Shown here piece after piece: positions 1 to 18,188 of a DNA stretch of 18,188 nt. Numbering within the stretch: the first letter of the stretch is position 1; each line of letters starts with the position of its first letter. The translations under genes and the position numbers were made by a program. Source of the DNA: a virus (taxonomy: Duplodnaviria; Heunggongvirae; Uroviricota; Caudoviricetes). The notes beneath the pieces are model-generated. The model was not told the origin of the DNA and did not search any database. It saw only the letters and a list, made by a program, of their open reading frames with translations. Location of the stretch: the IMG/VR virus record IMGVR_UViG_2671181094_000006; one strand, written 5' to 3'.

Positions 1-537
1 TTACTCGTCCAGCAGAATCACTTTGCCGATATACGGCAGATGACGGTAACGCTGTGCGTAATCAATGCCGTAACCCACCACAAACTCATCCGGGATCGAG
101 AAACCGATAAATTCTACCGGGACGTTCACTTCACGACGGGACGGTTTATCCAGCAGCGTACAAATCGCCAGCGACTTCGGTTCGCGCAGGCTTAAGATCT
201 CACGCACTTTCGACAGTGTATTCCCCGAGTCGATGATATCTTCAACAATCAGCACGTCCTTGCCACGGATATCTTCATCCAGATCTTTGAGGATTTTCAC
301 ATCACGGGTGGTGGACATGCCGCTACCGTAGCTGGAGGCGGTCATAAAGTCGACTTCATGAGATACCTGAACTTCACGGCACAGGTCCGCCATAAACATA
401 AATGAGCCACGCAGCAGACCAACCAGCACCATATCGCTGCCGCTGTCTTTGTAACGCTCAGTAATCTGACGACCCAGTTCGGCGATACGCGCTTTAATCT
501 CCGCTTCGGGGATCATTACTTCTACAATATGTTTCAT
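1..537 (-). CDS. hpt: hypoxanthine phosphoribosyltransferase
   Basis: 178-aa ORF with ATG at 537 and TAA at 3-1. The product ([24 protein letters not shown]...[14 protein letters not shown]...) carries the PRPP-binding motif of type I phosphoribosyltransferases and matches enterobacterial Hpt as I recall it. An in-frame GTG at about 552 could be an alternative start. Confidence 0.9.
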
Positions 538-717
538 AATCTATATATCTCACTGATTTTAATCAGTTAAATTCAATCTCACACTATGCAATTCAGTAAA
601 TATTGATACACCGATTGATATACGGATTATCGCACAGAGCCGAAATCACGCATAAGCATGAGCACATTCCAAAGAGCTGGGGATTATAGCAAGGAAATAT
701 TGTAGGGGTAATGAATA

Positions 718-745
718 CCATGCCTGCTTACGATTGCAGGCATGG
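718..745 (-). terminator. perfect 10-bp inverted repeat hairpin (CCATGCCTGC-N8-GCAGGCATGG), possible terminator of the 755-1294 gene or an island-boundary palindrome
   Basis: Read directly from the sequence. It lies 9 nt downstream of the TAA of the 755-1294 gene on the minus strand; the trailing U-tract is only moderate (UAUUCAUU). Confidence 0.35.
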
Positions 746-754
746 TGCAGACAT

Positions 755-1294
755 TTAATCCATGAGGCTGTTCAGTGCTTGCTCAACACTTTCATACTTC
801 TGCGTAGTTGGTTTACCTGTTGCGTTTTTAACCATTGAGAACAAAACCACCTCGCCGCTTAGGTCTGAAACACCAGTTGACTCTAAATACGGCAATAATT
901 CTTTCTCATAGAACTCAATTTCTTTTAGTAGCATTTCATCAGGCCTACCAGCCCAAGAATTACGCTCCGGGGACTTTCCACGTTTTATAGAGTAATTAAG
1001 CGAAAATTCTTTATTTTCATATTTGAACTCAACTGCACCATCACAACCAAAGAAGCTTCCTGTGAGTTTTGAGAAATCAATGAGAGTATCAAGGCCGCCG
1101 TTATAAGTGGCTTTCAACTTAGGAGTCTGGCCTGTAATTGTAAATCCTTTAGATTTAAAAAATTCCAAAACATCTTTCTGAATAGCGGTAGCAGCATCAT
1201 TTATTTGTTTATTCAACAACTCGCGCCGAGGAGCGCTGAATTCTTCAATTTTTGCTTTAAGATCTTGTAGTTTCATTTTGTTAGCTAATGACAT
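755..1294 (-). CDS. hypothetical protein, AT-rich orphan cargo gene (179 aa from ATG 1294; the ORF track extends to 1369)
   Basis: Preferred start MSLANKMKLQDLKAKIEEF is preceded by AAGGAA at about 7 nt spacing. Codon usage is visibly AT-rich compared with hpt and the island backbone. No motif recognised. Confidence 0.6.
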   Translation of the reverse strand: MSLANKMKLQDLKAKIEEFSAPRRELLNKQINDAATAIQKDVLEFFKSKGFTITGQTPKLKATYNGGLDTLIDFSKLTGSFFGCDGAVEFKYENKEFSLNYSIKRGKSPERNSWAGRPDEMLLKEIEFYEKELLPYLESTGVSDLSGEVVLFSMVKNATGKPTTQKYESVEQALNSLMD

Positions 1295-1502
1295 ATAAAT
1301 TCCTTGTATATCCAGAGTAATAGCTGTGCATAGTCTATGCGATTTCATCCTACTGCTATAAAACATCAAATTCCATAAACATAACCATCAATTAGTTATA
1401 AATGCCTCGATGTTGAATGCGTCCCCCATACTCAACCGGGAATGGGCTGAGCACATTTATCATGACTGTGACCACCAGCCATGACGGCGGATTGTCATGA
1501 AT

Positions 1503-1547
1503 TACTAATGTATGATAGCACTGTCATACAATAAGGAATCTCCCACT
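1503..1547 (+). promoter_or_regulatory. conserved promoter/operator of paralog A (TATGAT -10-like element inside the inverted repeat TGTATGA-N8-TCATACA, then AAGGAA RBS)
   Basis: About 45 bp upstream of the start is conserved with the equivalent region at 5885-5929 (tgtatgatag..ct.tc..acaataaggaa). Confidence 0.45.
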
Positions 1548-1907
1548 ATGAGACTAACCAGCCGCAAAAAGACGATACTCAGCTACTTCGAACCGGATAA
1601 CCGCGACTGGGTGACGGGTGAGATCGGCGCACCTCCCCTTGATGTATCCGGCGTGGCGTACCTGCTGTATGGGACAGGCCTCGAAGACAACCGGCACTGG
1701 CTCGAATCCACCAGACGAACGCTGGAAGCAATGGTGAAAGATGGGTTGCTGGAGAGGTACCGGAGCAGGGAGGCGCGGAGTATCGTTATGGGCGGCGAGA
1801 CGACCGCTACCGTTGTCCGTTACGGCCTGCCGGGTACCGTTTCAGTGGTACGCGATACGGGAGGTGCAGACGGCACGATAGAAGGCGAATATGTGCGGGT
1901 CGTTTAA
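1548..1907 (+). CDS. conserved hypothetical protein, paralog A1 (119 aa), possible winged-helix-like regulator
   Basis: MRLTSRKKTILSYFEPDNRDWVTGEIGAPPLDVSGVAYLLYG... aligns along its whole length with the 5930-6289 product (MRMTSRKKEILSYFEPDNRDWVTGEIGAPPFDVSGVAYLLHG...). Start and upstream region are conserved between the two copies. Confidence 0.7.
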   Translation: MRLTSRKKTILSYFEPDNRDWVTGEIGAPPLDVSGVAYLLYGTGLEDNRHWLESTRRTLEAMVKDGLLERYRSREARSIVMGGETTATVVRYGLPGTVSVVRDTGGADGTIEGEYVRVV

Positions 1908-2095
1908 CGACGTGGATTATCTGGCCTCTTCCACTGGTAGGCTGGTGCCGTCATCCTCCGGCGGTGCCGTTCTTTAGCAGCGAGCGTTCCCGCAACCCTG
2001 CAACGTAACTCCAGCATATCGGTGGCATTCAGCTCATTCCCCTGCAGGCGGGCCAGCTCTTCAATTACCGCCTCGATTTTCTTCTGTTTTAACAC
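1904..2095 (-). CDS. small hypothetical protein A2 (63 aa, GTG start) with C-terminal APAYQWKRP...RR motif
   Basis: Convergent with A1, with the stops overlapping by 4 nt. The C-terminal motif is shared with the 6945-7130 product (RAPAYQWKKPAPRR). AGGAA lies 8 nt upstream of the GTG. Confidence 0.5.
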   Translation of the reverse strand: MLKQKKIEAVIEELARLQGNELNATDMLELRCRVAGTLAAKERHRRRMTAPAYQWKRPDNPRR

Positions 2096-2201
2096 GCTAT
2101 ATCTTCCTGCTCTATAGGCTCACCGGCTACGCCCTGAGCATCGTTATAAAAAGCCAGCCCCGGAGGGCTGGAATAACAGGAGCCCGCTGGCACACTTTGC
2201 T

Positions 2202-2789
2202 TTAATCGGTATCGTCGGCCAGGGCATACAGCAACGAAGGGATCACTCTCCGCATGGCTGTTTCTTCGGTTTCATCGCTCATGAGAGTCAGGGTGTAATC
2301 CCGGCACTCGTAAATCACATCATATGCAGACAGGCCGAACGCGCCGCCCGCAATGATCTGCCCAATTTCAACATCTGGCGTTTCAACAATCGACAGCCGG
2401 TAGCCGCCGAACGTCACAGGAGGGTTATAAGGCCCTTCGCTTACAAACAGCTCTACGGCCTTTGCAGCAACCTGGGCTCGTTCGTCCGGGTCCACCCCGG
2501 ACACCTTACCGGCACCTGACACCATGATGCGCTTAATCTCCGCAACACTCATTTCCACCAGCGTATACCCCTGCACCTCACCAGCTGGAGCAGGCTTGGT
2601 TTTACCCCTGGCATTCTTCGTACGCGGGTCACTGGCGCTGCGGTATCGTGCCAGATAAGTATCACAGGCCTCCTGGTCAATCTTCCCGTCAACCCGCGCC
2701 GGAAATCCTTCATGACTCTCCCAGTTATACAGTGCCTGCCGGCTCATTCCGGCATGTTTTGCGTACTGGCTGACGCTCATTAGTGACAT
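2202..2789 (-). CDS. HTH DNA-binding protein, phage Nu1-like (small-terminase-like N-terminus) / packaging-associated candidate
   Basis: N-terminus VSQYAKHAGMSRQALYNWESHEGFP resembles the lambda gpNu1 winged-HTH pattern (KKQLADIFGASIRTIQNWQEQGMP). AGGAG lies 7 nt upstream of ATG 2789. The gene sits beside a dense TGTCAA repeat array. Confidence 0.6.
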   Translation of the reverse strand: MSLMSVSQYAKHAGMSRQALYNWESHEGFPARVDGKIDQEACDTYLARYRSASDPRTKNARGKTKPAPAGEVQGYTLVEMSVAEIKRIMVSGAGKVSGVDPDERAQVAAKAVELFVSEGPYNPPVTFGGYRLSIVETPDVEIGQIIAGGAFGLSAYDVIYECRDYTLTLMSDETEETAMRRVIPSLLYALADDTD

Positions 2790-2825
2790 AATTTTTCTCC
2801 TGCCTCATTGTCACCGGCTGGCCAG

Positions 2826-3040
2826 TGTGTCAACCCGCCGGCGGGAAACTGTCAATCAAACGTCAAGGGATCAACCGCTTGACACTTTTTTCTGTCAACT
2901 TGACACTTTTCGGGCTGAAAGTGTCAATCAAACTGTCAATCAAAACTTTCACGAATTCCCCTGCATCACGCGCCGCCTCTGGACCTTAACAACCTGACAA
3001 CAAAAAAGTGTCAAGTGTAAAGTGTCAATCAAATTGAAAA
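2826..3040. repeat. array of TGTCAA / TTGACA motifs (four copies of TGTCAATCAAA, several GTGTCAA/TTGACAC, palindrome TGTCAAnTTGACA, 12-bp palindrome CCCGCCGGCGGG); candidate protein-binding (cosB-like or operator) region
   Basis: Read directly from the sequence in the 350-bp non-coding gap between the tfa stop (3138) and the Nu1-like gene start (2789). Confidence 0.6.
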
Positions 3041-3137
3041 CCTGCAGCTACAAAAACACTGCGGCGCGCAATGCCCGTGCCTTACAAAAGTCTCAGGAAG
3101 GACCCATTTTTTCTGAGGGCCATTCCATAGTTATCAC

Positions 3138-3563
3138 TTAATGAACTTCCGGCATCACAGGCCATTCAATATCTGGGGCATCATCAGGGTTAACACGACT
3201 GAGCAGAACGGAGTATTTTTCCCAGTGTTCCAGTCGCGTTTTTTCATCCAAGGTAGCCATTCCGTATTTCACAGCACGCGCTAAAGGGACGATAACGTCC
3301 TCAGCCTTTGTACGTTGCCGCTCTTTTTCAGCCCCAGCCAGCCTGGATAACTGTGCTTTGGTCTGTGGAGGTACATCGACCCACGAGGGCAAGCCATCAG
3401 CCCCTACCCCCCTTTGCTTACCTTCTGGTGGAACCCTGGTGAACTCGTGAAAAACGTTATCACTGACTGCTATAAGGTCCGCTGGTAGAGAATTGTTGTC
3501 CCGATAAGCTGGTAATAATTCATCAGGGTAAAAACACGCCGTTGACGCACTAAAATGATACAT
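3138..3563 (-). CDS. tail fibre assembly protein (Tfa-like chaperone)
   Basis: Start MYHFSASTACFYPDE and C-terminus HWEKYSVLLSRVNPDDAPDIEWPVMPEV match the conserved ends of phage Tfa chaperones (...W.KYR.LL.RVD...APDIEWP..P). Its ATG at 3563 follows the upstream TAG at 3566-3568 closely. Confidence 0.7.
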   Translation of the reverse strand: MYHFSASTACFYPDELLPAYRDNNSLPADLIAVSDNVFHEFTRVPPEGKQRGVGADGLPSWVDVPPQTKAQLSRLAGAEKERQRTKAEDVIVPLARAVKYGMATLDEKTRLEHWEKYSVLLSRVNPDDAPDIEWPVMPEVH

Positions 3564-3565
3564 GA

Positions 3566-4099
3566 CTATTCCCCTATAGCTAACCATCCAAAATTATCTG
3601 CATTACCCGAACTGCCGCTGATCCAGCCATATGCACGGAAACCGGAATTGGAATCATTGGTTACGGACACGTAACGATTTCCATCTGCGTACTTCGTAGC
3701 AACAATAGCAATAGCCCGCTTAGGAAAAGGTATCGGATACTGAACATTACCTGATGGTGAATTAATAGTGGCAGTTCCCATTTGAACAATAATATTTTTC
3801 TTTTCACCTGATGGTGTTCGGGTAGGAATAATACAGTAACCCTGTGAAGTAAGGGCACCTACGATGGGTTCAGATAGAAGGGCGGTGATCCTCAACTCAT
3901 CAATAACTTCGTTTAACTGACCATCATTTTCAGGCTCAAGCTGGCGGCCAGAACCCTCTACCACGCCCACCATCTCACGCTGCCAGGTATTAAAAATATC
4001 GGCAACAAGAATTGTTGGTGATACCCCATTAGCAACATTACCTTGTGTAAATTCCCCATTACTATCAGCAGTATCAGTGACTGAACTTATCTTACGCAT
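3566..4099 (-). CDS. tail-fibre-tip-like protein (177 aa), too short for a full fibre
   Basis: Directly upstream of and coupled to tfa, which is the usual fibre-chaperone arrangement. The C-terminal half is Gly/Ser/Asn-rich and looks beta-rich (...GWISGSSGNADNFGWLAIGE). The call is mainly positional. Confidence 0.45.
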   Translation of the reverse strand: MRKISSVTDTADSNGEFTQGNVANGVSPTILVADIFNTWQREMVGVVEGSGRQLEPENDGQLNEVIDELRITALLSEPIVGALTSQGYCIIPTRTPSGEKKNIIVQMGTATINSPSGNVQYPIPFPKRAIAIVATKYADGNRYVSVTNDSNSGFRAYGWISGSSGNADNFGWLAIGE

Positions 4100-4127
4100 T
4101 ATGCATATCCTTTAATTGATATCTTCG

Positions 4128-4586
4128 CTATATAGAAAGCGTATCTGCCATACTCACCGGCTCGATATACTTCTCAAGCGCTAACAGAGCGGCGTTAAAA
4201 CCAGCACGATAGCCGTTTGTGTCACCGTTAATCATGCTGTGTTGAAATGCCGCCATGTTCTGGTCTTCGGCATCAAGGAACTCCCAGCCAGGATAAACTT
4301 TCTCCATAGCCCGCCGGGTAAAACGACTGAGCTGGCGAGCGCTGCCTTTTAGTCTGGCAATAGCCTTCTGATGTGGGATCCCTTCCGCGATAAGATGAAA
4401 TGCCTGTATCGGATTTTGTTTTGCCGCTTTGCTCACCGCTATCAGATGCGCATCAGAATGGGGGCATTCAGGGAGTTCCTCTTCTTCAAGCGATTGCTGA
4501 AGCTGGTGCATACGCTGCATACGGCGCCCGGAAAAGCCATATGCATGCGCATCAGGTTGCTGCTTGTTGAGGTGCTGAAAGTTCAT
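4128..4586 (-). CDS. hypothetical protein, paralog of the 4607-5290 product (start taken at MNFQHLNK)
   Basis: Shares N-terminus (MxFxHL) and the central block WEF.D.E...NGY.A...AL.AL.K..EP with the upstream gene. GGAG lies about 9 nt upstream of ATG 4586. Confidence 0.6.
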   Translation of the reverse strand: MNFQHLNKQQPDAHAYGFSGRRMQRMHQLQQSLEEEELPECPHSDAHLIAVSKAAKQNPIQAFHLIAEGIPHQKAIARLKGSARQLSRFTRRAMEKVYPGWEFLDAEDQNMAAFQHSMINGDTNGYRAGFNAALLALEKYIEPVSMADTLSI

Positions 4587-8395: not shown

Positions 8396-8707
8396 TTACT
8401 GCGAACAGTCGCCCCCGATGGTGGCCTGTCGTTGCTTCTTGCCGCCATTTAACCGGAAGGCGTTACCGTTCGGTTGCGCTATCCCCATGCGGTGTTGCGT
8501 TTCGGTAACAGCTTTATGCAGATCGCCAAAGTCCTCAACCTTCACGGGCGGGCGCTTCACGTTCTCCAGACACGTTTCACGGCGGCGCTTTATCCATTCC
8601 CGATCATCGTCCTCGGTGCATAACAGCATGACTTCCATCCATCGCGCGGCGGCGCGTCGGTACAGCCCTTTTGCTTCCAGATCCTCGGCTTTACTGTCGT
8701 TTACCAT
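8396..8707 (-). CDS. PerC-family transcriptional activator-like protein
   Basis: N-terminus KAEDLEAKGLYRRAAARWMEVMLLC...REWIKRRRETCL resembles the PerC pattern (AE.LE..GLWRRA..RW.EV). GAGGGGG RBS upstream of ATG 8707. Confidence 0.55.
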   Translation of the reverse strand: MVNDSKAEDLEAKGLYRRAAARWMEVMLLCTEDDDREWIKRRRETCLENVKRPPVKVEDFGDLHKAVTETQHRMGIAQPNGNAFRLNGGKKQRQATIGGDCSQ

Positions 8708-8718
8708 GTGTATCCCCC

Positions 8719-9180
8719 TCAGAATGGATCTTCATCATCAAACGGCGGGCGCTGGTCAAAATCATCAGGGGTGTTATATAGCTCCCATCCCGGCGCGGAT
8801 TGTGTTGCGTGGCCTCTGCTGGCTCCGCTTGCTTTGACTGATTCGGCCCGCTTCCCGCCAGGGCGTACCGTTCTGGCGCTGATTACACTGTCGGCTACTA
8901 CCTGATAACCTTGCTGTATACCGCCATCCTTGCCCGTCCACTGATTGACCTGCATCGCTCCGGCAACACTGACTAAATCGCCTTTAACGTGTCCTGCCAG
9001 TGCGTCGGCCTGTTTGCCGAATGCCACCACGCCCAGCCAGAAAGTAACCTCTCCGCCCTCTGCTGCATGGCATGGCAGTGCCACCGCTAAACGCCCCATT
9101 GCCATGCTTGTACCGTTTGCTGTGGTGCGGGTCTGCGGGTCTGCGACTAAACGCCCGTAGGCTGATATCTGTGCTGTCAT
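8719..9180 (-). CDS. ssb: single-stranded DNA-binding protein
   Basis: OB-fold pattern (GRLVADPQTRTT.NG...W..VVAFGKQAD...KGD.V.V.G....QW) and acidic C-terminal tail DDEDPF typical of SSB. Confidence 0.8.
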   Translation of the reverse strand: MTAQISAYGRLVADPQTRTTANGTSMAMGRLAVALPCHAAEGGEVTFWLGVVAFGKQADALAGHVKGDLVSVAGAMQVNQWTGKDGGIQQGYQVVADSVISARTVRPGGKRAESVKASGASRGHATQSAPGWELYNTPDDFDQRPPFDDEDPF

Positions 9181-9283
9181 TTTGCGAATACCTCGAATTA
9201 TTAGTTTTGCTAATGAAGATTACCCGGCTCCGTCTTATTGTGGGACACCTTCGCCAGATTTTTTTGTATATAAACAAAAAAGT

Positions 9284-9545
9284 TGGTGGTTCAGGTGGTT
9301 CAGTGGTTCAGTACCCCTCTAGGCCGCGCCATCTCTGGGTTTTGCTGAACCACCTTTTAAATTTATCTGGTGGTTCAGTCGCCCTTCTTGGTGGTTCACT
9401 GCCAGCCAGTGAAAATAATCCGTTTCTCTCTGGTGGTTCAAAATACCCGTTTGGTGGTTCAGTGGTGGTTCACTTTCTTACAAAAAAACATTATAAATCA
9501 ATAACAATTACTTACTGAACCACTGAACCACCTGAACCACCACAA
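9284..9545. repeat. iteron array, putative satellite origin of replication (about 12 copies of GGTGGTTCA(G/C) in both orientations, flanked by A/T-rich stretches)
   Basis: Read directly, for example tggtggttcaggtggttcagtggttcag and ctgaaccactgaaccacctgaaccacc. Lies immediately downstream of the primase-helicase gene, analogous to the P4 ori/crr iterons. Confidence 0.7.
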
Positions 9546-9567
9546 AAAACCTCGCACGTGAAAAAGA

Positions 9568-12345
9568 TTATTGCTCTGGCTGGCTTTCCTCCCCATCCGG
9601 CAGGAATTGCAAAACGTAAACGTTAATCTGCCTCCCCTGAATGCGCGGGCTTTTCCTCTGAAATTTTTTTCCGTCTGCCGAAGGGGTAAGCATCCCCGAT
9701 TCTTTCAGGACGCGGGCCACCTGCTGCCTGTTAAACCCCTTAGCAATATCCTTATCGAAAGTGTCGGGGAACGTGTAAAACGTTATCGGTGAATCGTCAT
9801 GATTTCCGCGCTGCCTGTATCCAGCCAGATTATGAATCGGCAGGCTGGCGGGGTCGTAAGGCAGCGGCGCGAATCGACTCAGGCCATAGGCATTTAAAAA
9901 TGCCTCCGCCTGCTCGATGATCTGCTGGTGCTCTTTGTTCCCCGTGCCGAACTCTTTTAGCCATGCGTTATAGGCGTGCTGTATCGCATCCCGGCACGTT
10001 TGAGCATCCCAGCCAGTAACCACGCCACCCATCAGTAAAGCGGCCTCCAGAATGGCAAATCTTGCCCCTACACGGTGAACCTGTTCCCCATAGTCGGCAG
10101 GAATTAGACTGCGCCAGCGGGCCTCACACTCACGAACGGCATCAATCGCCTGTTGCTGGTGGTCTGAAAGCCATCTGATCCACTCCCTCCCGGCAGCGCC
10201 ATGATGGTTCTGGTAAGCGTCTTTCAGCGCGTCGGCGTGGTCTCTCCCTGTCTGGTACTCATGAAAGCGCACCGCCTTACTCAGCGGGATATTCAGCAGT
10301 CGCACCAGTTGCCCCGCTTTTGTCTTGCGTCCTGCGGTGGAGATGAACGTTTCTAAATCCATTTCCCCGGTGCTGATTGCCACGGTGCGCCAGCGTTTCA
10401 GATCCCGGTTGCCTCCTTCCTTTGCTCCCTGCAATTTCCCCACGCCGTTAAACAGGGCATAGGCAGACTGAGCAACGCTTATCGGGTCTGCGCCCTGTCC
10501 GACTTCATCCAGTGGCATCAGCCCGTCATTGTGGGCGGCGGCCTCGTTTATCAGCCCCAGCGCCGTTCCGTACCACGTCAGGCGCAAGGCATCAGGGTTG
10601 CCATAAAGACTGCTCGCCACGTTCTGCGTGGTTGTTTTCCCGGCGCTCGATTGCTCGTAAAAATGAATCCCGAAGCCGTCACGCTCCGCCAGCCCGATTA
10701 ACGGTGCTGCAAGTGCGGCGGCAATGCCTGTCATCATCGCGTAGTTACCGTATGCCAGACGCGCAACACTCTTACGCCAGCTCTCTGAGGTTCCCGCCAC
10801 GGTGTACCCGGCAGCGGCAGAACTGCGGCCACTGAATAAAACGGGTTGTGCAGGTGCGCCGATAATCTCCCCGTCCGGCATGATGTATGCCCCGCACTGC
10901 CAGCCAGTAGCGTGAGCAACACGCCACAATTCACGTGAGCCGCTACGCTGTAACCAGTCAGCCAGAATCGCCCGCAAGCTGCTTTTGGTGGTGACGTTAA
11001 CCCCGCCCGCTTTCAGGGTGCGCCAGCCTTCGCGCTCCCCGATATCAGCCAGGGGGATAGCCGCTGTTGTCGGTATGCCTGCGCCAAAGGCCAGCCAGCG
11101 TAATATCAGATACTGATCCTTGTCGTCCCGCCCGGTGCCGATAACGTCCATCGGTGAGGCCAGCCAGCTTTCATTGTTGATAATCTCGCCGCTTTCCTTG
11201 TCCACTTTAGGCGTGATCCAGTAAACGCCATCTTTGCGGCTCTCAATGCGGGGTTTTAGCGGGTCTTTCTCTGGCTGGTCAGTTTTACCGCCCTCAATGG
11301 CCTGTAGTTGTGGTTTCACGCATTCCCCCTGCGGCTGGTACATCGAATCATTAAACGCAGCCGTAGCGACTTCCAGCCCGTGTTGCTGGTGGTAGTCGTT
11401 CCAGTCAGCTTTGCTGTCAGTCGGTGGCAGCGATACCCAGCCAGCCACGGATAAAGCCGCTTTCTCTGCGGCCTCCTTCCCGATGTTGGTGGCTCCGGTT
11501 TCGGAGGCTGCTGTAGGGTGGTCGTTATCTGCGGCGATAATAATTTGCGACTGCGGGTGTTTCCGGCGCATTACTCCGGCAACGTGGATCAGGTTCCCGG
11601 CGTCAATTGCCGCCACTGTGAGCGCGTCAGGCCGCATCTGGTGAACGGACAGGGCGGTAGCCAGCCCCTCGGCAATCACGACGCTTTGAGGCCGTTCCAG
11701 CGCGTTTACGGCGTAATATGCCCCGCGCTTTGCCGATCCCTTAATGAGTCGCTTTTCTCCCTGCGGGGTGATGGTCTGCGCGGCTGTGACTGCGCCGGAT
11801 TCATCCACCAGCTCCAGCAATAACGAACCATCGGGCATAAGCGGGTATTTAAACCCGGTCAGCCCTTTTGATTGCAGGTACTCAGATTCTCCCTGTATGG
11901 ATCTCAGGCGCATTCCGGTATACAGACGGGCAAACGTAGCCCTTCGCTGATCTGCGTCCTCTGCTGCCTGTTTCTGGCGCTCCTGCTCACGCTGCTGGCG
12001 GTCTGCGGCTAACTGCCTCTGTCTCTGGCTGGCAGCGTCTGGTGCTGATTCTGCGGCCCGGTAATCAATACCCAGCACATCAGCGGCAAGCTGTGCCGCC
12101 TCCGTGGTGTCGCAGTTGTTCACCTTCTTAATCAGGTCTAAGCCATCGCCCGCGCCGCACTGGTTGCAGATAAAGCTGCCGCGCCCGTTGTCGTCGAATC
12201 TGAAACGGTCTTTCCCACCACATGCAGGGCAGGGGGCATGGCGGCGCGATGAATCAGGAACGTCGATAGACAATCCGGCCAGCACATAAGGCCATCGCCC
12301 TGCTGCGGCGCTGGTCACTTCGCGGATAAGGTCGATATTACGCAT
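9568..12345 (-). CDS. primase-helicase (P4 alpha-like: N-terminal zinc ribbon, TOPRIM primase, C-terminal P-loop NTPase)
   Basis: 925 aa. Zinc ribbon CPACGGKDRFRF...CNQCG, TOPRIM acidic motifs (VVIAEGLATALS ... IIIAADND), Walker A-like SSAGKTT. GGGAGG RBS upstream of ATG 12345. Confidence 0.9.
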   Translation of the reverse strand: MRNIDLIREVTSAAAGRWPYVLAGLSIDVPDSSRRHAPCPACGGKDRFRFDDNGRGSFICNQCGAGDGLDLIKKVNNCDTTEAAQLAADVLGIDYRAAESAPDAASQRQRQLAADRQQREQERQKQAAEDADQRRATFARLYTGMRLRSIQGESEYLQSKGLTGFKYPLMPDGSLLLELVDESGAVTAAQTITPQGEKRLIKGSAKRGAYYAVNALERPQSVVIAEGLATALSVHQMRPDALTVAAIDAGNLIHVAGVMRRKHPQSQIIIAADNDHPTAASETGATNIGKEAAEKAALSVAGWVSLPPTDSKADWNDYHQQHGLEVATAAFNDSMYQPQGECVKPQLQAIEGGKTDQPEKDPLKPRIESRKDGVYWITPKVDKESGEIINNESWLASPMDVIGTGRDDKDQYLILRWLAFGAGIPTTAAIPLADIGEREGWRTLKAGGVNVTTKSSLRAILADWLQRSGSRELWRVAHATGWQCGAYIMPDGEIIGAPAQPVLFSGRSSAAAGYTVAGTSESWRKSVARLAYGNYAMMTGIAAALAAPLIGLAERDGFGIHFYEQSSAGKTTTQNVASSLYGNPDALRLTWYGTALGLINEAAAHNDGLMPLDEVGQGADPISVAQSAYALFNGVGKLQGAKEGGNRDLKRWRTVAISTGEMDLETFISTAGRKTKAGQLVRLLNIPLSKAVRFHEYQTGRDHADALKDAYQNHHGAAGREWIRWLSDHQQQAIDAVRECEARWRSLIPADYGEQVHRVGARFAILEAALLMGGVVTGWDAQTCRDAIQHAYNAWLKEFGTGNKEHQQIIEQAEAFLNAYGLSRFAPLPYDPASLPIHNLAGYRQRGNHDDSPITFYTFPDTFDKDIAKGFNRQQVARVLKESGMLTPSADGKKFQRKSPRIQGRQINVYVLQFLPDGEESQPEQ

Positions 12346-12359
12346 TCGTGTTACCTCCC

Positions 12360-12986
12360 TCAGTGCGCCGCTGGCATTTCAGGCAAGCCGTTTTCATTCA
12401 GATCGGCAATGAATCCATCGTGTAGCTCTGCCAGCGTTTCACGCCCGAACGGGGTCAATTCCCCGCGCTCCGTGTCGATCATGGCCTGATAAAAAACAAT
12501 GGCGTTCGCTGTTCCCTGCTCAATGCCGTAGCGCTCAATCATTGCGCCCTCCATGTTGTTAGCCATCGCCAGACGTTCCGCGAACGGGTAAACCACAATC
12601 CCCGCCGTGCCATTTGAATAAAACGTCACCAGCGACGATTTGCCGTCATCCTCCGTGATGGTGGTTGTGCCGTTTTCGCGCTTCATCTCAGAAATGAACG
12701 TCGCAGCAATCAGCCAGCGCCACATAGTGACGTTATGCTGCGCGGTAAAGTCGAACCAGCCACGCGCCCCGCCATCAGCAACGGCAAAATGTATGGCGTA
12801 TCCGATATCTGGCTTGTCGTCGTACTCTCCGGCGTCAAGGCCGTTCACGGCGCTCTCGTAGCTGATAAGAGCAACCAGCTCAAATCCCCCGGCATCATTG
12901 CGGGTCATGATATTGACGCCGTGCGGTGTGGCTTCGGCGCGTAATACGTCGTCATTTCCCGGTGTGAATTTCTCTACGTTGCTCAT
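12360..12986 (-). CDS. hypothetical protein (208 aa), last gene of the small-gene operon upstream of the primase
   Basis: ATG overlaps the upstream stop as ATGA. No motif recognised. Confidence 0.6.
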   Translation of the reverse strand: MSNVEKFTPGNDDVLRAEATPHGVNIMTRNDAGGFELVALISYESAVNGLDAGEYDDKPDIGYAIHFAVADGGARGWFDFTAQHNVTMWRWLIAATFISEMKRENGTTTITEDDGKSSLVTFYSNGTAGIVVYPFAERLAMANNMEGAMIERYGIEQGTANAIVFYQAMIDTERGELTPFGRETLAELHDGFIADLNENGLPEMPAAH

Positions 12987-13712: not shown

Positions 13713-13888
13713 GCTGCCACCTCCTGAACACGGGTGATGCGAACGTGTTTATAACCGCCCTGCTGCGCCAATAACTGAGCGGTCGATTTGGCTGTATCCG
13801 GGCTGGCACCGGTCAGGGTGTAGTGAATGCCGACGGTGTTACCGCGCTTATTAACCGCGTATCCGTCAATCTGGAAGGTTTTACGCAT
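13709..13888 (-). CDS. hypothetical small protein (59 aa; start taken at MRKTFQIDGY, the ORF track extends further)
   Basis: GGAGGTG RBS lies 4-5 nt upstream of ATG 13888. The longer ORF-track start lacks an RBS. Confidence 0.55.
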   Translation of the reverse strand: MRKTFQIDGYAVNKRGNTVGIHYTLTGASPDTAKSTAQLLAQQGGYKHVRITRVQEVAA

Positions 13889-14084
13889 GACGCACCTCCG
13901 ACACCGGCAGGCGAGCAGCCAGAGAGAGGATAAAGTGCGGCGCCAAAATGCGGCGGGCGTCACGTTCGGTTGCGGCCTCGACGGACAGGCGGCAGGGAGT
14001 GGCCTTTTTGTCGTGACGGTTGAGCGCCAGAAAGCGCCAGATGTAGTTGTTCCGCCCTTGCGGGTGTGTGATATGATCGTTCAT
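13881..14084 (-). CDS. hypothetical small protein (67 aa, MNDHITHPQG...), first gene of the leftward operon
   Basis: This is the C-terminal 67 codons of the 391-aa track ORF 13881-15056. GAGG RBS upstream of ATG 14084. The rest of that long ORF crosses a promoter region, an opposite-strand gene and terminators. Confidence 0.5.
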   Translation of the reverse strand: MNDHITHPQGRNNYIWRFLALNRHDKKATPCRLSVEAATERDARRILAPHFILSLAARLPVSEVRHA

Positions 14085-14190
14085 AGCTGCCTCGTTATCT
14101 ACGCTAACGTTGGTGGTTAGAGGCCCGTTGGTGTTGTCGCACCTGCGGGCTTCGCTGTTTTTGTGCCTTACCTGTGCTTTAGCTGTGGAT

Positions 14191-14253
14191 AAGGTGTTTA
14201 AATACCTTATATCAAGGTGTTTAAATACGTCAAGCCAAAAGTATTTAAACACT
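14191..14253. promoter_or_regulatory. operator-like repeats: AAGGTGTTTAAATAC twice in direct orientation plus one inverted copy (GTATTTAAACAC), in a divergent promoter region
   Basis: Read directly. The repeat is centred on the palindrome TTTAAA. Lies between the leftward operon start (14084) and the rightward small gene (14317). Confidence 0.55.
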
Positions 14254-14316
14254 TCACAAATCTGTAGAGATGATTTATTTTCTCTAGTGTTAAAACACCA
14301 ACAGGAATCATCTTCA

Positions 14317-14520
14317 ATGGCTACAGGGCACAGAAACAACAAGTCTGCATACAAGGGAATCAGATTCCCATATGAATTGGTTGAGGAAATTGACGCCAGC
14401 GTAGAGCGAGAGAAAGCCGAAAACTCCGGGGCCAATTTCTCCGCATGGGTGCTGGATGCCTGCGGACGTAAGCTCAAATCAGAGCAGCGCAAAAAATCCA
14501 AAGCTGAGCCAGAGGCATGA
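14317..14520 (+). CDS. small putative DNA-binding regulator (67 aa, ribbon-helix-helix-like), candidate island repressor
   Basis: MATGHRNNKSAYKGIRFPYELVEEIDASVEREKAENSGANFSAWVLDACGRKL... The only plus-strand gene in this region, divergent from the replication operon across the operator repeats. The ORF-track N-terminal extension from 14110 looks non-coding. Confidence 0.5.
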   Translation: MATGHRNNKSAYKGIRFPYELVEEIDASVEREKAENSGANFSAWVLDACGRKLKSEQRKKSKAEPEA

Positions 14521-14662
14521 GTTATGCCTGACTCAACACGGTGTAAATGGCGAGACGCAATCGCTGTTGTTTTTTTAGTTGCAACTGCGTATTCCTCATA
14601 CTGGATAGTTAAGGCTATCGTGTCGCTAATCAGGTAACTGAGTTGGAAAAGCATAAAGCAGA

Positions 14663-14690
14663 GGGTAGGATTCGGAATCCTGCCCTTTTT
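14663..14690 (+). terminator. rho-independent terminator (8-bp stem GGGTAGGA/TCCTGCCC with one G-U pair, loop TTCGGAA, then TTTTT)
   Basis: Read directly, downstream of the 14317-14520 gene. Confidence 0.5.
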
Positions 14691-14807
14691 CCTCAAAGTG
14701 AGGACTGGTGGAATAATCAATGACTTAGGCACAAAGCGCCATTTTACGCTTTGCCATAAAAACAATGAGAAATCTACCAGAATGCAAATTTGCACTCTGT
14801 TCAGACT

Positions 14808-14894
14808 TTGACCATCAGCATTAACCCTGGTATGCTTAATCTGTTTCGGTTTTTCGTAGTGACATTGGCAGCTCTGCAAAGCTGCCTTTGTTTT
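14808..14894 (+). ncRNA. candidate short antisense RNA (about 50 nt) convergent on the 3' end of the Bro-N gene
   Basis: -35 TTGACC (14808-14813), 17-nt spacer, -10 TATGCT (14831-14836). Hairpin GGCAGC-N8-GCTGCC (14867-14886) followed by TTTGTTTT, which overlaps the Bro-N stop codon. Confidence 0.25.
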
Positions 14895-15510
14895 ATGCAT
14901 CATCTTCAACGCCCTCCAGCAATCCGGGTTGATACTTTCTCCATAATCCAATTTCTTCCATCTCAAGACGGGCTTTCTCTCCTTTGCACGCCTGTAGGTC
15001 GCTACCGCACTTACTGGCTTTCTTTGTGTACTGATCCTTGCGGCGACTGAAGTCATTTAGGAATGAGAACGGGACGCCGTATGAACCGGTTTTACGTATT
15101 GACGGGATTACTTCGCGGAACACCCAGTTTGTAAATCTGTGGGCAAACGAGCCTGTAGTAGAAGCTTTACGACTACGGGCAATCAGTTTATAAAAGCCTG
15201 ATTCTGCGGCCATATTCCAGCTACGTGCTCCACCACGTTTACCCGAATGACCCTCAGTTAAAGTTAGGGTCATTACCTCGTCGCCATCCAGAGAGGCAAC
15301 GGCACTGGTTGGATTGCTGATTTCCAGCGCCTGGCACACATCAGATACAACGAACCACGGCTCACCGAAAACATTCACGATCCTGACCGTGCGGCCTTCA
15401 AATTTAATTACTGAAATATCATTTTCACTTGCCGTGAAATTAGCCTTTTTGCTGGCTTCAGGGTGAGTCTTGCCGCTGCCAGTTAAGGCAGTAAATTTTT
15501 TCTGAGTCAT
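14893..15510 (-). CDS. Bro-N domain protein (phage antirepressor-like)
   Basis: N-terminal region FEGRTVRIVNVFGEPWFVVSDVCQALEISNPTSAVASLDGDE matches the Bro-N/antirepressor N-terminal signature. GGAG RBS upstream of ATG 15510. Confidence 0.75.
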   Translation of the reverse strand: MTQKKFTALTGSGKTHPEASKKANFTASENDISVIKFEGRTVRIVNVFGEPWFVVSDVCQALEISNPTSAVASLDGDEVMTLTLTEGHSGKRGGARSWNMAAESGFYKLIARSRKASTTGSFAHRFTNWVFREVIPSIRKTGSYGVPFSFLNDFSRRKDQYTKKASKCGSDLQACKGEKARLEMEEIGLWRKYQPGLLEGVEDDA

Positions 15511-15648: not shown

Positions 15649-15933
15649 TTAGGCCGATTTACGGCTATATGGGTTATTGACGTTAGGTACAGCAGGGGGA
15701 TTACGAACCCACCAGAGCACATCGGACAAAAGCCAGGCGCAGCTATTGCGGCCAAAGTGGCAGCGCGGAGGAAAGCGGCCCTCTTGCTCCATCTTCCAAC
15801 GACTGGAGCGGGAAAGGCTTGTGATTTCGCCACATTCATCTTCACGAATCCGGCGATCAAACTTGAAGCCGTACTCCTCAAGAAGGTTACGGCGTTGTTC
15901 GGGGTTAGGTGGGGTAAAGATAATATTGTTCAT
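15649..15933 (-). CDS. alpA: AlpA-family phage transcriptional regulator (HTH)
   Basis: ...ITSLSRSSRWKMEQEGRFPPRCHFGRNSCAWLLSDVLWWVRN is typical of the AlpA HTH. Start taken at ATG 15933 with GGAGG 4 nt upstream; the ORF track extends to 15981. Confidence 0.75.
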   Translation of the reverse strand: MNNIIFTPPNPEQRRNLLEEYGFKFDRRIREDECGEITSLSRSSRWKMEQEGRFPPRCHFGRNSCAWLLSDVLWWVRNPPAVPNVNNPYSRKSA

Positions 15934-16029
15934 ACTGCCTCCACTGTTTCTAGGTTTGTGGAGGTTATTGTTATCAATCAAAAAGAACTTGTCTGAAATA
16001 TTCCGGAAAATTAACGGAATTTCCGCAGA

Positions 16030-16869: not shown

Positions 16870-16961
16870 ATCGTCACCCTCAACGCCCCTAAATAACTTG
16901 CGGGCCAGGCGGGTAGGGTTTCCCGCTTTTCGGTTGGCCGACCTAGACCCGCAATATCAGT

Positions 16962-18188
16962 TTAATCTCTATTCGCTACAGGTAACAGAACCACATTTTT
17001 ATGATTACCCGCAAGAAGTTCTAAACGTTCATGCCATTTGTTCAGCGCATCCAGCTTCTCCGGCAAGTACAGGCTACGGTTATATATAGCCATGACGCCC
17101 GGTAGAGCATGACCCAGCAGCAACTCTACAATATGCGGTGCTATGCCCATATTGTTTAACCCCGTGGAGAACGTGCGCCGCAGATCGTGAAGTGTCCACG
17201 GCTCGTTATGATGGAAATCTTTAAAAAGCCGTCGCCCTTTCAAAGATACAGCTTGCCGGGTGCGCTCTTCTCCCAGCAGCAGGCCTGTTTTACCCGTCTC
17301 GCGTTTTAACTCTTCCAGCCACGGGCGTATAGCTTCAGGGATTGATCTCACGATTTTCTCGCGGGTTTTGCTGTGCTCTTTCGGGACTGTCCAAATCCAC
17401 GAGGTAAAATCCCACTCCGACCATCGAGAGAGGCGAACTTCCATCGTTCGAGCGCCAAACAGCACCAGCATTTTGAGAAGACGTGAATAATACGGCTGCT
17501 GATCATCGCTGTCTGTGCAGCGCCATACATCGGCCAGCTCGCTATCTGACAATACGCGGTCACGTTGACCGGATGGCTGGCCTACATCCTGAATGGTGAG
17601 AAAGGCTAGAGCATCACTGGCGGCATAGCGGCGAACCTTGCAGAAGCGTAACGCCTGTTTAGAAATCTGGAACATGCGGCCGGCGGTCATGGGTTTGGTC
17701 AGATTTATTTCATCAAAACAGGCCACCCAATGACGGGTTTCACATCTGGTGAGGGGATAACGACCAAGGCGCGGGTAAATATGCTTGCGTAGCTGTGCCC
17801 TTACCAGCTCCTCATCGCTGCGCTTTCTCCTGGCGTAGTTCACCAGCCAGTATTCGAGAGCATCCTGTACTGTCACAGGTTTAAGCGTTTCTTCGGTGCT
17901 CAGTTCAAGCTCTGTTTTTGGATCAAGACCACCAGCCAGCCACTGGCGACACTTTTCCCGCTTTTCTCTCGCCGCTTTTAGCGACAAATCCGGGTAACGG
18001 CCAAGCGTTAAACGTTCGAGTTTGCTACCCCTTCCGCCCAATCGGTAAGCGAACACCCAGCTAACGTTACCTTGCTTCGAAACCTTAATGCTCAGTCCTT
18101 CACCATCGGCAATCATGATCGGTGCTTCACGCTCAGAACCCTGCAGCGCTTTTAGCTTTTTGTCGCTCAGTTTGTTTGTACCAGCCAT
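16962..18188 (-). CDS. int: tyrosine recombinase, P4-type integrase (N-terminal arm-binding domain plus catalytic domain)
   Basis: 408 aa. N-terminal DGEGLSIKVSKQGNVSWVFAYR resembles the P4-family arm-binding motif. C-terminus has HDLRRTFST and LLGHA...AIYNRSLY (catalytic R, H-x-x-R, Y). The start codon sits exactly at the window edge, so the true N-terminus could lie beyond it. Confidence 0.9.
   Translation of the reverse strand: MAGTNKLSDKKLKALQGSEREAPIMIADGEGLSIKVSKQGNVSWVFAYRLGGRGSKLERLTLGRYPDLSLKAAREKREKCRQWLAGGLDPKTELELSTEETLKPVTVQDALEYWLVNYARRKRSDEELVRAQLRKHIYPRLGRYPLTRCETRHWVACFDEINLTKPMTAGRMFQISKQALRFCKVRRYAASDALAFLTIQDVGQPSGQRDRVLSDSELADVWRCTDSDDQQPYYSRLLKMLVLFGARTMEVRLSRWSEWDFTSWIWTVPKEHSKTREKIVRSIPEAIRPWLEELKRETGKTGLLLGEERTRQAVSLKGRRLFKDFHHNEPWTLHDLRRTFSTGLNNMGIAPHIVELLLGHALPGVMAIYNRSLYLPEKLDALNKWHERLELLAGNHKNVVLLPVANRD

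Follow-up and report, generated by a model that had tools for sequence, protein, structure and literature searches.

A predicted replication module of the phage-inducible chromosomal island type, with a fused TOPRIM-DUF927 initiator and an iteron origin, in an enterobacterial island

The question raised by the 18,188-nucleotide viral sequence IMGVR_UViG_2671181094_000006 (Caudoviricetes), referred to as a whole as the window, is what kind of replicon is formed by its primase-helicase gene, the repeats directly after that gene and the adjoining gene for a single-stranded DNA-binding protein (SSB). An earlier reading from the letters alone, the sequence-only reading, had taken these for a self-contained replicon of the phage P4 alpha/ori kind. 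In our analysis, the module is very probably the replication module of a phage-inducible chromosomal island (PICI) of enterobacteria, carrying a TOPRIM-DUF927 allele of the initiator Pri-Rep, and not a P4 replicon. The island was found to carry an apparently complete replication module, intact by sequence, and replication is what lets phage satellites amplify before packaging by the helper phage. Coordinates of the features are collected in Table 1.

The 925-residue protein, described earlier as a zinc-ribbon/TOPRIM/P-loop enzyme, was resolved by Pfam into Zn_Ribbon_Prim (residues 34-69, E = 3e-15), Toprim_3 (residues 222-323, E = 4e-15) and DUF927, and phrog_1139, 'DNA primase', spans it end to end (E = 9e-180). 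The zinc-ribbon cysteines were read at C39, C42, C60 and C63, the TOPRIM glutamate within AEGLATA (residues 224-231, the counterpart of the EGYATA motif of P4), the DxD within AADNDH (residues 271-276), Walker A as SSAGKTT (566-572) and Walker B as LMPLDEV (609-615). Residues 7-338 share 34% identity with P4 alpha (BLASTP, E = 6e-44), whose length of 777 residues was also confirmed and whose primase part has these two Pfam domains too, and beyond residue 338 BLASTP gives no alignment with alpha. The earlier label 'alpha-type' is hence apt for the N-terminal primase third but not for the helicase-initiator part, which carries DUF927 and has no similarity to the D5_N/DUF5906/Pox_D5 part of alpha.

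The relatives of this second part were found among staphylococcal elements. In a phmmer comparison with the sequences of the PDB, the only real matches were the initiator-helicase of the Staphylococcus aureus pathogenicity island (SaPI) SaPIbov1 (8TCH, E = 6e-9) and Cch of the staphylococcal cassette chromosome mec (SCCmec; 5DGK, E = 0.01). An AlphaFold model of residues 350-925, used for family-level matching only, retrieved the same two structures as the only Foldseek matches under 1e-3 (8TCH, E = 2e-13; 5DGK, E = 2e-12; probability 1.0 and template modelling (TM) score of 0.45-0.57). The NCBIfam model Cch1 scored 32 bits (E = 4e-8), so far under its cut-off of 700 that Pri-Rep is not a Cch orthologue. 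Residues ~370-925 are thus assigned to the DUF927 helicase-initiators typified by SaPIbov1 Rep and SCCmec Cch, unlike the D5-type helicase of P4, and Pri-Rep as a whole is a fusion of a P4-alpha-type primase with a staphylococcal Rep/Cch-type initiator-helicase. The family assignment is corrected in this sense, the primase being P4-like and the helicase-initiator being of the staphylococcal Rep/Cch type. Such a fusion is very common: the name 'TOPRIM and DUF927 domain-containing protein' is carried by more than 1980 close homologues, and an exhaustive search gave 2519 representatives of 50%-identity clusters with E of 1e-30 or less. Among the 150 best of these that were listed, many are 860-960 residues long and aligned over both the primase and the DUF927 parts.

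The last part of the protein, the C-terminal domain (CTD; residues 831-925), is the putative iteron-reading winged-helix domain. The Pfam family HTH_56 ('Cch HTH') matched the last 120 residues below its threshold (E = 3e-4; 21 bits, cut-off 26), and in a separate model of the CTD the elements follow one another as strand-strand-helix-helix-hairpin, as they do in a winged helix. The best match of this model in Foldseek, a weak one, was the oriT-binding winged helix-turn-helix protein TcpK (5vfx, E = 0.02, TM score of 0.6).

The sequence-only reading had also counted about 12 iterons directly after the primase gene, with A/T-rich DNA and then an ssb gene, and these observations and their coordinates proved accurate. 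The array begins 26 nt past the pri-rep stop codon and consists of ten exact copies of the 9-bp word GGTGGTTCA and two one-mismatch copies, AGTGGTTCA, all within 9285-9541; no exact GGTGGTTCA occurs elsewhere in the window. Matches to GGTGGTTCA with at most one mismatch number 16 in the whole window against 3.7 expected, and none of 200 dinucleotide-preserving shuffles reached 16. Counted from the stop codon, three iterons are followed by a 43-bp AT-rich block, five iterons in the opposite orientation, one flipped iteron and three more. The two outermost groups of three make up a perfect inverted repeat of 30 nt (9284-9313 / 9513-9542), and the spacing in the group of five is 11, 21, 42 and 21 nt, that is, multiples of the helical turn. 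A/T-rich DNA is present both within the array and outside it, and the block within is the presumed DNA-unwinding element.

The conservation of this layout was surveyed in 68 relatives from species-representative genomes. In 64 of the 68, the iteron cluster starts 8-63 nt (mostly 21-30 nt) past the stop codon, and in each of these the 40-nt stretch of the array with the lowest GC content (7-33% GC) has iterons of opposite orientation on its two sides. This AT block lies 36-90 nt past the stop codon in most relatives, as in the window, and at ~217-260 nt in a minority. The origins have two forms, a long form of ~12 repeats, to which the window belongs, and a short form of 3 + 3, whose iterons lie 26, 35 and 44 nt and 96, 107 and 128 nt past the stop codon in a large number of relatives, the circular record NZ_CP148430.1 among them. 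The stretch of the window which equals the short form is its probable minimal origin (Table 1). The iteron word itself varies, and at least eight words were found among the relatives, of which GTTGGTTCA, the word of E. coli ET479, is the commonest and GTTGTCTCA, that of E. coli D5, GTCGGTTCA and ACGGGTTAY are others. The word of the window is a rarer allele, one base off the commonest; it was not seen among the ~70 species-representative loci, and only by way of close homologues of the protein was it located, namely in Enterobacter, in Citrobacter and in one metagenome contig.

The variation of the word was found to be linked with that of the CTD. In comparison to several relatives, Pri-Rep is 90-100% identical over residues 346-650 and 88-96% over 651-830 but only 56-58% over 831-925. 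Among pairs of relatives with at least 90% identity in the core, CTD identity is 88% where the iteron word is the same and 65% where it is different. As a test of prediction, three proteins with a CTD 95-100% identical to that of the window were chosen (Enterobacter, Citrobacter and the metagenome), and each of the three loci proved to carry the twelve GGTGGTTCA sites of the window in identical places. Between the window and the most diverged of these loci, L078, 0 of 106 iteron columns and 21 of 152 spacer columns differ (Fisher p = 1e-5), which shows purifying selection on the iterons. That the CTD reads the iterons is strongly, if indirectly, supported by its covariation with the word.

At the nucleotide level, the window and the island of E. 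coli D5 are 50-74% identical within ~9250-9880 and 82-100% (mostly >90%) identical on either side. This one divergent block, which coincides exactly with the origin and the CTD-coding segment, fits an exchange of the reader domain and its sites as one cassette. In the alignment, changes in the helix (QQVARVLKE versus KQFAEVLKN) go along with iteron positions 2-3 and changes in the wing (QRKSPRI versus QGRV-RE) with positions 5-6, which hints at a simple read-out code of the CTD. It is quite possible, and we advance it only tentatively, that the TOPRIM-DUF927 Pri-Rep family of enterobacterial islands makes up a set of orthogonal initiator-origin pairs that are switched by swapping the ~620-bp cassette between islands that are near-identical elsewhere. 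If the alleles are truly non-cross-reacting, this would account for the coexistence of several such islands per cell and would offer a compact, programmable origin-initiator toolkit. The cassette of origin and CTD is a directly testable handle on initiator-origin specificity.

Comparison with known systems has placed the module among the PICIs. In Gram-negative PICIs, pri-rep is followed by an ori in which two iteron sets flank an AT-rich region (Fillol-Salom et al. 2018, PMC6092414), and EcCICFT073's pri-rep-ori segment drove plasmid replication in experiment (PMC6092414). Mageeney et al. have likewise grouped genes labelled 'Primase, SSB and DUF5906' with origins mapped in such islands (PMC10111431). 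Of the features by which PICIs are recognised, the window has the terminal integrase, alpA, genes in one direction and a pri-rep gene directly followed by a two-set iteron/AT-rich origin. EcCICFT073 has the order pri-rep, iteron region, small open reading frame (ORF), SSB and PerC in the CFT073 genome, an iteron origin with inverted sets directly 3' of pri-rep and the same one-directional int/alpA layout. It differs in its own Pri-Rep, a D5_N/DUF5906/Pox_D5 protein of 584 residues without TOPRIM and with no detectable similarity to that of the window, in its own CTGTCTACC-like iteron word, and in having capsid and decoration genes, of which the window has none.

The SaPIbov1 Rep belongs to the same helicase-initiator family as Pri-Rep, and its origin also lies directly after the gene, with opposed iterons around an AT-rich centre. 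SaPI Reps are self-loading initiator-helicases which bind the iterons through a C-terminal winged helix and have origin-binding, ATP-independent melting and 3'-5' helicase activities; the SaPI iterons are 5-6 nt long (PMC9371898), compared with 9 nt in the window. On the other hand, the SaPIbov1 Rep is a Gram-positive protein of ~580 residues with 13-15% identity to Pri-Rep in structural alignment. The SaPIbov1 primase is a separate protein with no TOPRIM fusion, and no ssb is known to accompany its Rep. SCCmec Cch, an MCM-like helicase, shares the DUF927 core and carriage on an integrative element, its C-terminal HTH_56 domain has a weak match in Pri-Rep, and in work that Mir-Sanchis reportedly described in 2016 it is encoded beside an SSB-like gene; it differs in the lack of a fused primase and in having no iteron origin defined beside it. 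Hence, Gram-negative and Gram-positive island replication modules are linked by protein homology, beyond origin design alone. This protein-level link to SaPIbov1 Rep/Cch and the origin + CTD specificity cassette are the only points of our study that are mildly new, and the current understanding of the replication of such islands is unchanged.

From the observed domains, the repeats with their conservation and selection, and the covariation of word and CTD, we infer the steps of binding, melting, loading and priming and the role of the SSB as follows. AlpA-dependent induction would lead to transcription of the one-directional operon and to synthesis of the single 925-residue Pri-Rep, the last ~95 residues of which, winged-helix-like, would read the 9-bp GGTGGTTCA iterons. 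Protomers on opposed iterons may then melt the 43-bp AT block without ATP, as has been shown for the SaPI Reps, and self-load as DUF927 (MCM-like) ring helicases. The fused zinc-ribbon/TOPRIM domain would make primers, and the host DNA polymerase III would synthesise DNA. Since the module encodes no DNA polymerase and synthesis must rely on that of the host, the earlier term 'self-contained' was too strong. The island SSB would coat the unwound strands, with its acidic tip docking host replisome proteins.

The module could plausibly drive the island's replication after excision. Some relatives have been deposited in their entirety as closed circles of 12-22 kb, labelled 'plasmid' but with no plasmid replication gene among their annotations and no replicon type given. 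One of them, E. coli NZ_CP148430.1 (12,152 bp), has int, an antirepressor, an Icd-like gene, a TOPRIM-DUF927 gene with a 3 + 3 GTTGGTTCA origin and PerC; another, CP031371.2 (21,845 bp), is a whole island of the same family and also has int, the antirepressor, Icd-like, TOPRIM-DUF927 and PerC genes. Both are probably excised satellites captured by assembly. The case for autonomous replication is circumstantial, drawn from the EcCICFT073 and SaPI experiments, the intact motifs and selected iterons, and the circular records.

Several points weigh against this interpretation. The circular records may be assembly products of excised circles that do not replicate. The CTD and the origin are adjacent, so that linkage alone could explain part of their covariation, and for this reason direct binding between CTD and iterons is something that we infer. 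The fold assignment of the CTD is weak (HTH_56 under its cut-off, Foldseek E of 0.02), and the models are mediocre, with a mean predicted local distance difference test (pLDDT) score of 66.8 for residues 350-925 and less than 50 in the ATPase core. A search of the literature found no experiments on this allele or on any DUF927-type origin of Gram-negative PICIs, and for the iteron words it gave unrelated primer matches only and no published description. Finally, no capsid-morphogenesis gene was found in the window and the TerS-like match is a weak one, and the satellite status is drawn from the layout.

The lack of a recognisable capsid gene and the weakness of the TerS-like match, together with a tail-fibre fragment inserted in the accessory region, would also suit a decayed remnant, in which the module looks complete and the island no longer replicates. 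We regard this as unlikely, as all the replication ORFs are intact with catalytic motifs present, the iterons are perfectly kept while the spacers drift, int and alpA are intact, and at least three further loci, from Enterobacter, from Citrobacter and on a metagenome contig, have an origin that is nearly identical.

A P4-type replicon, in which an alpha-like protein would bind the repeats through a P4-alpha-like CTD, with alpha and ori arranged in the classical way of a P4-like satellite, is very improbable. It is true that the N-terminal primase is homologous to that of alpha, that in both proteins a zinc-ribbon/TOPRIM primase, a helicase and origin binding are joined in one polypeptide, that P4 likewise has iterons (crr) directly after alpha, and that int, AlpA/Vis and the Icd-like segment are distant counterparts of P4 genes. 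Of the earlier reading, the order of a primase-helicase gene, an iteron origin right after it and an ssb gene is supported, and the 'classical P4 alpha/ori arrangement' is not. However, the helicase and C-terminal parts of Pri-Rep, with DUF927, are unrelated to the D5_N/DUF5906/Pox_D5 (superfamily 3, SF3) helicase part and the other CTD of alpha, and the origin-binding domain of alpha (1KA8) is absent from the top 50 fold matches of the CTD. P4 has two cis sites built of the octamer TGTTCACC, namely crr, which is separated from alpha by a terminator, and ori ~4.5 kb off, and it lacks an ssb gene, whereas the window has one cluster of a different word. When all P4 proteins were compared with the window by tblastn, matches were confined to int, the N-terminus of alpha, the cI-ORF/Icd-like segment and Vis/AlpA; sid, psu, delta and epsilon, the defining components of P4-like satellites in SatelliteFinder (PMC10085698), were absent. 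The domain comparisons with alpha and the P4 protein search have largely refuted this alternative.

A scan of positions 8650-9700 detected no sigma-70 consensus promoter, no terminator and only a chance-level hairpin, and because no promoter or terminator consensus lies between the two genes, transcription probably runs on from pri-rep across the origin into ssb. Plasmid initiators that bind iterons often autoregulate, and the array stands directly upstream of ssb, followed by an A/T tract. It is nevertheless highly doubtful that the array is mainly a transcriptional operator for ssb-perC, bound by Pri-Rep or another regulator, since to the missing promoter and terminator and the probable co-transcription are added arrays of the same geometry in relatives without ssb and the fact that PICI and SaPI origins have been described as having this very design, an AT block between inverted iterons (PMC6092414, PMC9371898).

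With the PICI-type module as the preferred interpretation, the place of the SSB in it can be considered. The 'cognate SSB' of the sequence-only reading was overstated: the SSB is 95-97% identical beside initiators with other iteron words and 61% identical to the SSB adjoining the unrelated EcCICFT073 initiator, and it was detected within 700 nt downstream of pri-rep in only 24 of 54 full-length relatives. It is an accessory, optional and non-specific. Its C-terminus, ...PPFDDEDPF, ends in the acidic tip DDEDPF, and such acidic SSB tips are expected to contact host replisome proteins. Between the origin and ssb lies a 78-nt leader (9181-9258), which is identical in the close relatives L076 and L077, has two differences in L078 and is deleted in E. 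coli ET479, which retains the origin and ssb; no promoter consensus was found in it. At the other end of the module, directly upstream of pri-rep, a 208-residue protein of phrog_1515 is encoded (12360-12986, minus strand), found at that place in 34 of 54 relatives by tblastn, and could be an unrecognised partner of the replication module.

Table 1. Features of the replication module and of the island around it (positions in the window; L001, E. coli D5; L076, Enterobacter roggenkampii island; L077 and L078, close relatives)
Feature	Position	Strand	Basis or remark
pri-rep gene	9568..12345	minus	925-residue putative fused primase / helicase / origin-binding initiator; Pfam and phrog_1139
Primase module, residues 1-345	11311..12345	minus	P4 alpha homology
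DUF927 P-loop helicase domain, residues 370-649	10399..11238	minus	PF06048, E = 1e-46; SaPIbov1 Rep / SCCmec Cch type
CTD, residues 831-925	9571..9855	minus	weak HTH_56, fold model, covariation with iteron word
Origin, 12 iterons	9284..9542	none	repeat count and conservation in relatives
Iterons, group of 3	9285-9310	plus	
Iteron, single	9346-9354	minus	
Iterons, group of 5	9369-9472	plus	
Iterons, group of 3	9516-9541	minus	
AT-rich block	9473..9515	none	43 bp, 17.5% GC in 40-nt window; between oppositely oriented iterons; presumed unwinding element
Second A/T tract	9259..9283	none	outside array, ssb side; conserved in L001 and L076-L078
Minimal origin candidate	9432..9541	none	3 iterons, AT block and 3 inverted iterons
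Candidate specificity cassette (origin and CTD-coding segment)	9250..9880	none	one contiguous divergent block, ~620 bp
ssb	8719..9180	minus	153-residue SSB; PF00436, E = 5e-14, residues 4-99 (OB fold); phrog_44
perC-family regulator	8396..8707	minus	PF06069, E = 2e-29; after ssb, order as in EcCICFT073
TerS-like ORF, 195 residues	2202..2789	minus	N-terminal 65 residues, phrog_57, E = 8e-8 (weak)
Tail-fibre fragment (Gp53-like_C, 177 residues) and tail-fibre assembly chaperone (Caudo_TAP)	3138..4099	minus	in accessory region
alpA regulator	15649..15981	minus	Phage_AlpA, E = 4e-10; island activator
int-alpA RNA motif	16886..16953	minus	Rfam RF02996, 62.6 bits, E = 4e-11; directly downstream of int, before next ORF
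Tyrosine integrase	16962..18188	minus	Arm-DNA-bind_3 and Phage_integrase; island end

All the main genes of the window are on the minus strand, and those not listed in Table 1 include a Bro-N antirepressor, the Icd-like segment, a PRiA4_ORF3 protein and hpt at the left end. The TerS-like ORF may encode a packaging-redirection protein of the island. The block with the tail-fibre genes (3112-4158) is missing from the island of Enterobacter roggenkampii, which is 87-98% identical elsewhere; tail genes are a 'forbidden' component for PICIs in SatelliteFinder (PMC10085698). A 391-residue ORF (13881-15056, minus strand) matches the Icd-like family over its last ~50 residues only and is probably spurious; that same end (13884-14069) has 44% identity with the P4 'cI' ORF in the C-terminal part of the latter. 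In the Rfam search of the window, int-alpA alone reached threshold and the P4 CI-like (C4/isrK) RNA was not found even at E of 0.1; a sub-threshold match to the SymR antitoxin RNA at 14085-14156 on the plus strand (32 bits, gathering score 61, E = 0.002) is probably due to chance. A PADLOC search of the accessory ORFs for defence genes was negative. No tRNA gene is present in the window, which rules out a tRNA attachment site inside it, and the int-side att site lies outside the window.

Relatives of the module were detected in 389 of 5426 complete E. coli genomes, and in the two examined in detail an island of ~13 kb is located between yicC and dinD. None of the E. coli, species-representative and protein collections contained the exact sequence of the window, and the best protein-level match in them was 92%. 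The closest island is that of Enterobacter roggenkampii, between gcd and hpt, whose hpt-side flank is 97% identical to positions 1-3111 of the window, including hpt; the island host is probably a genome of the Enterobacter cloacae complex. An enterobacterial-type island with a Pri-Rep 84% identical to that of the window was also observed in two CACSKA01 contigs labelled Chryseobacterium sp. 18061 (Bacteroidota), and contamination or mislabelling of that assembly is likely.

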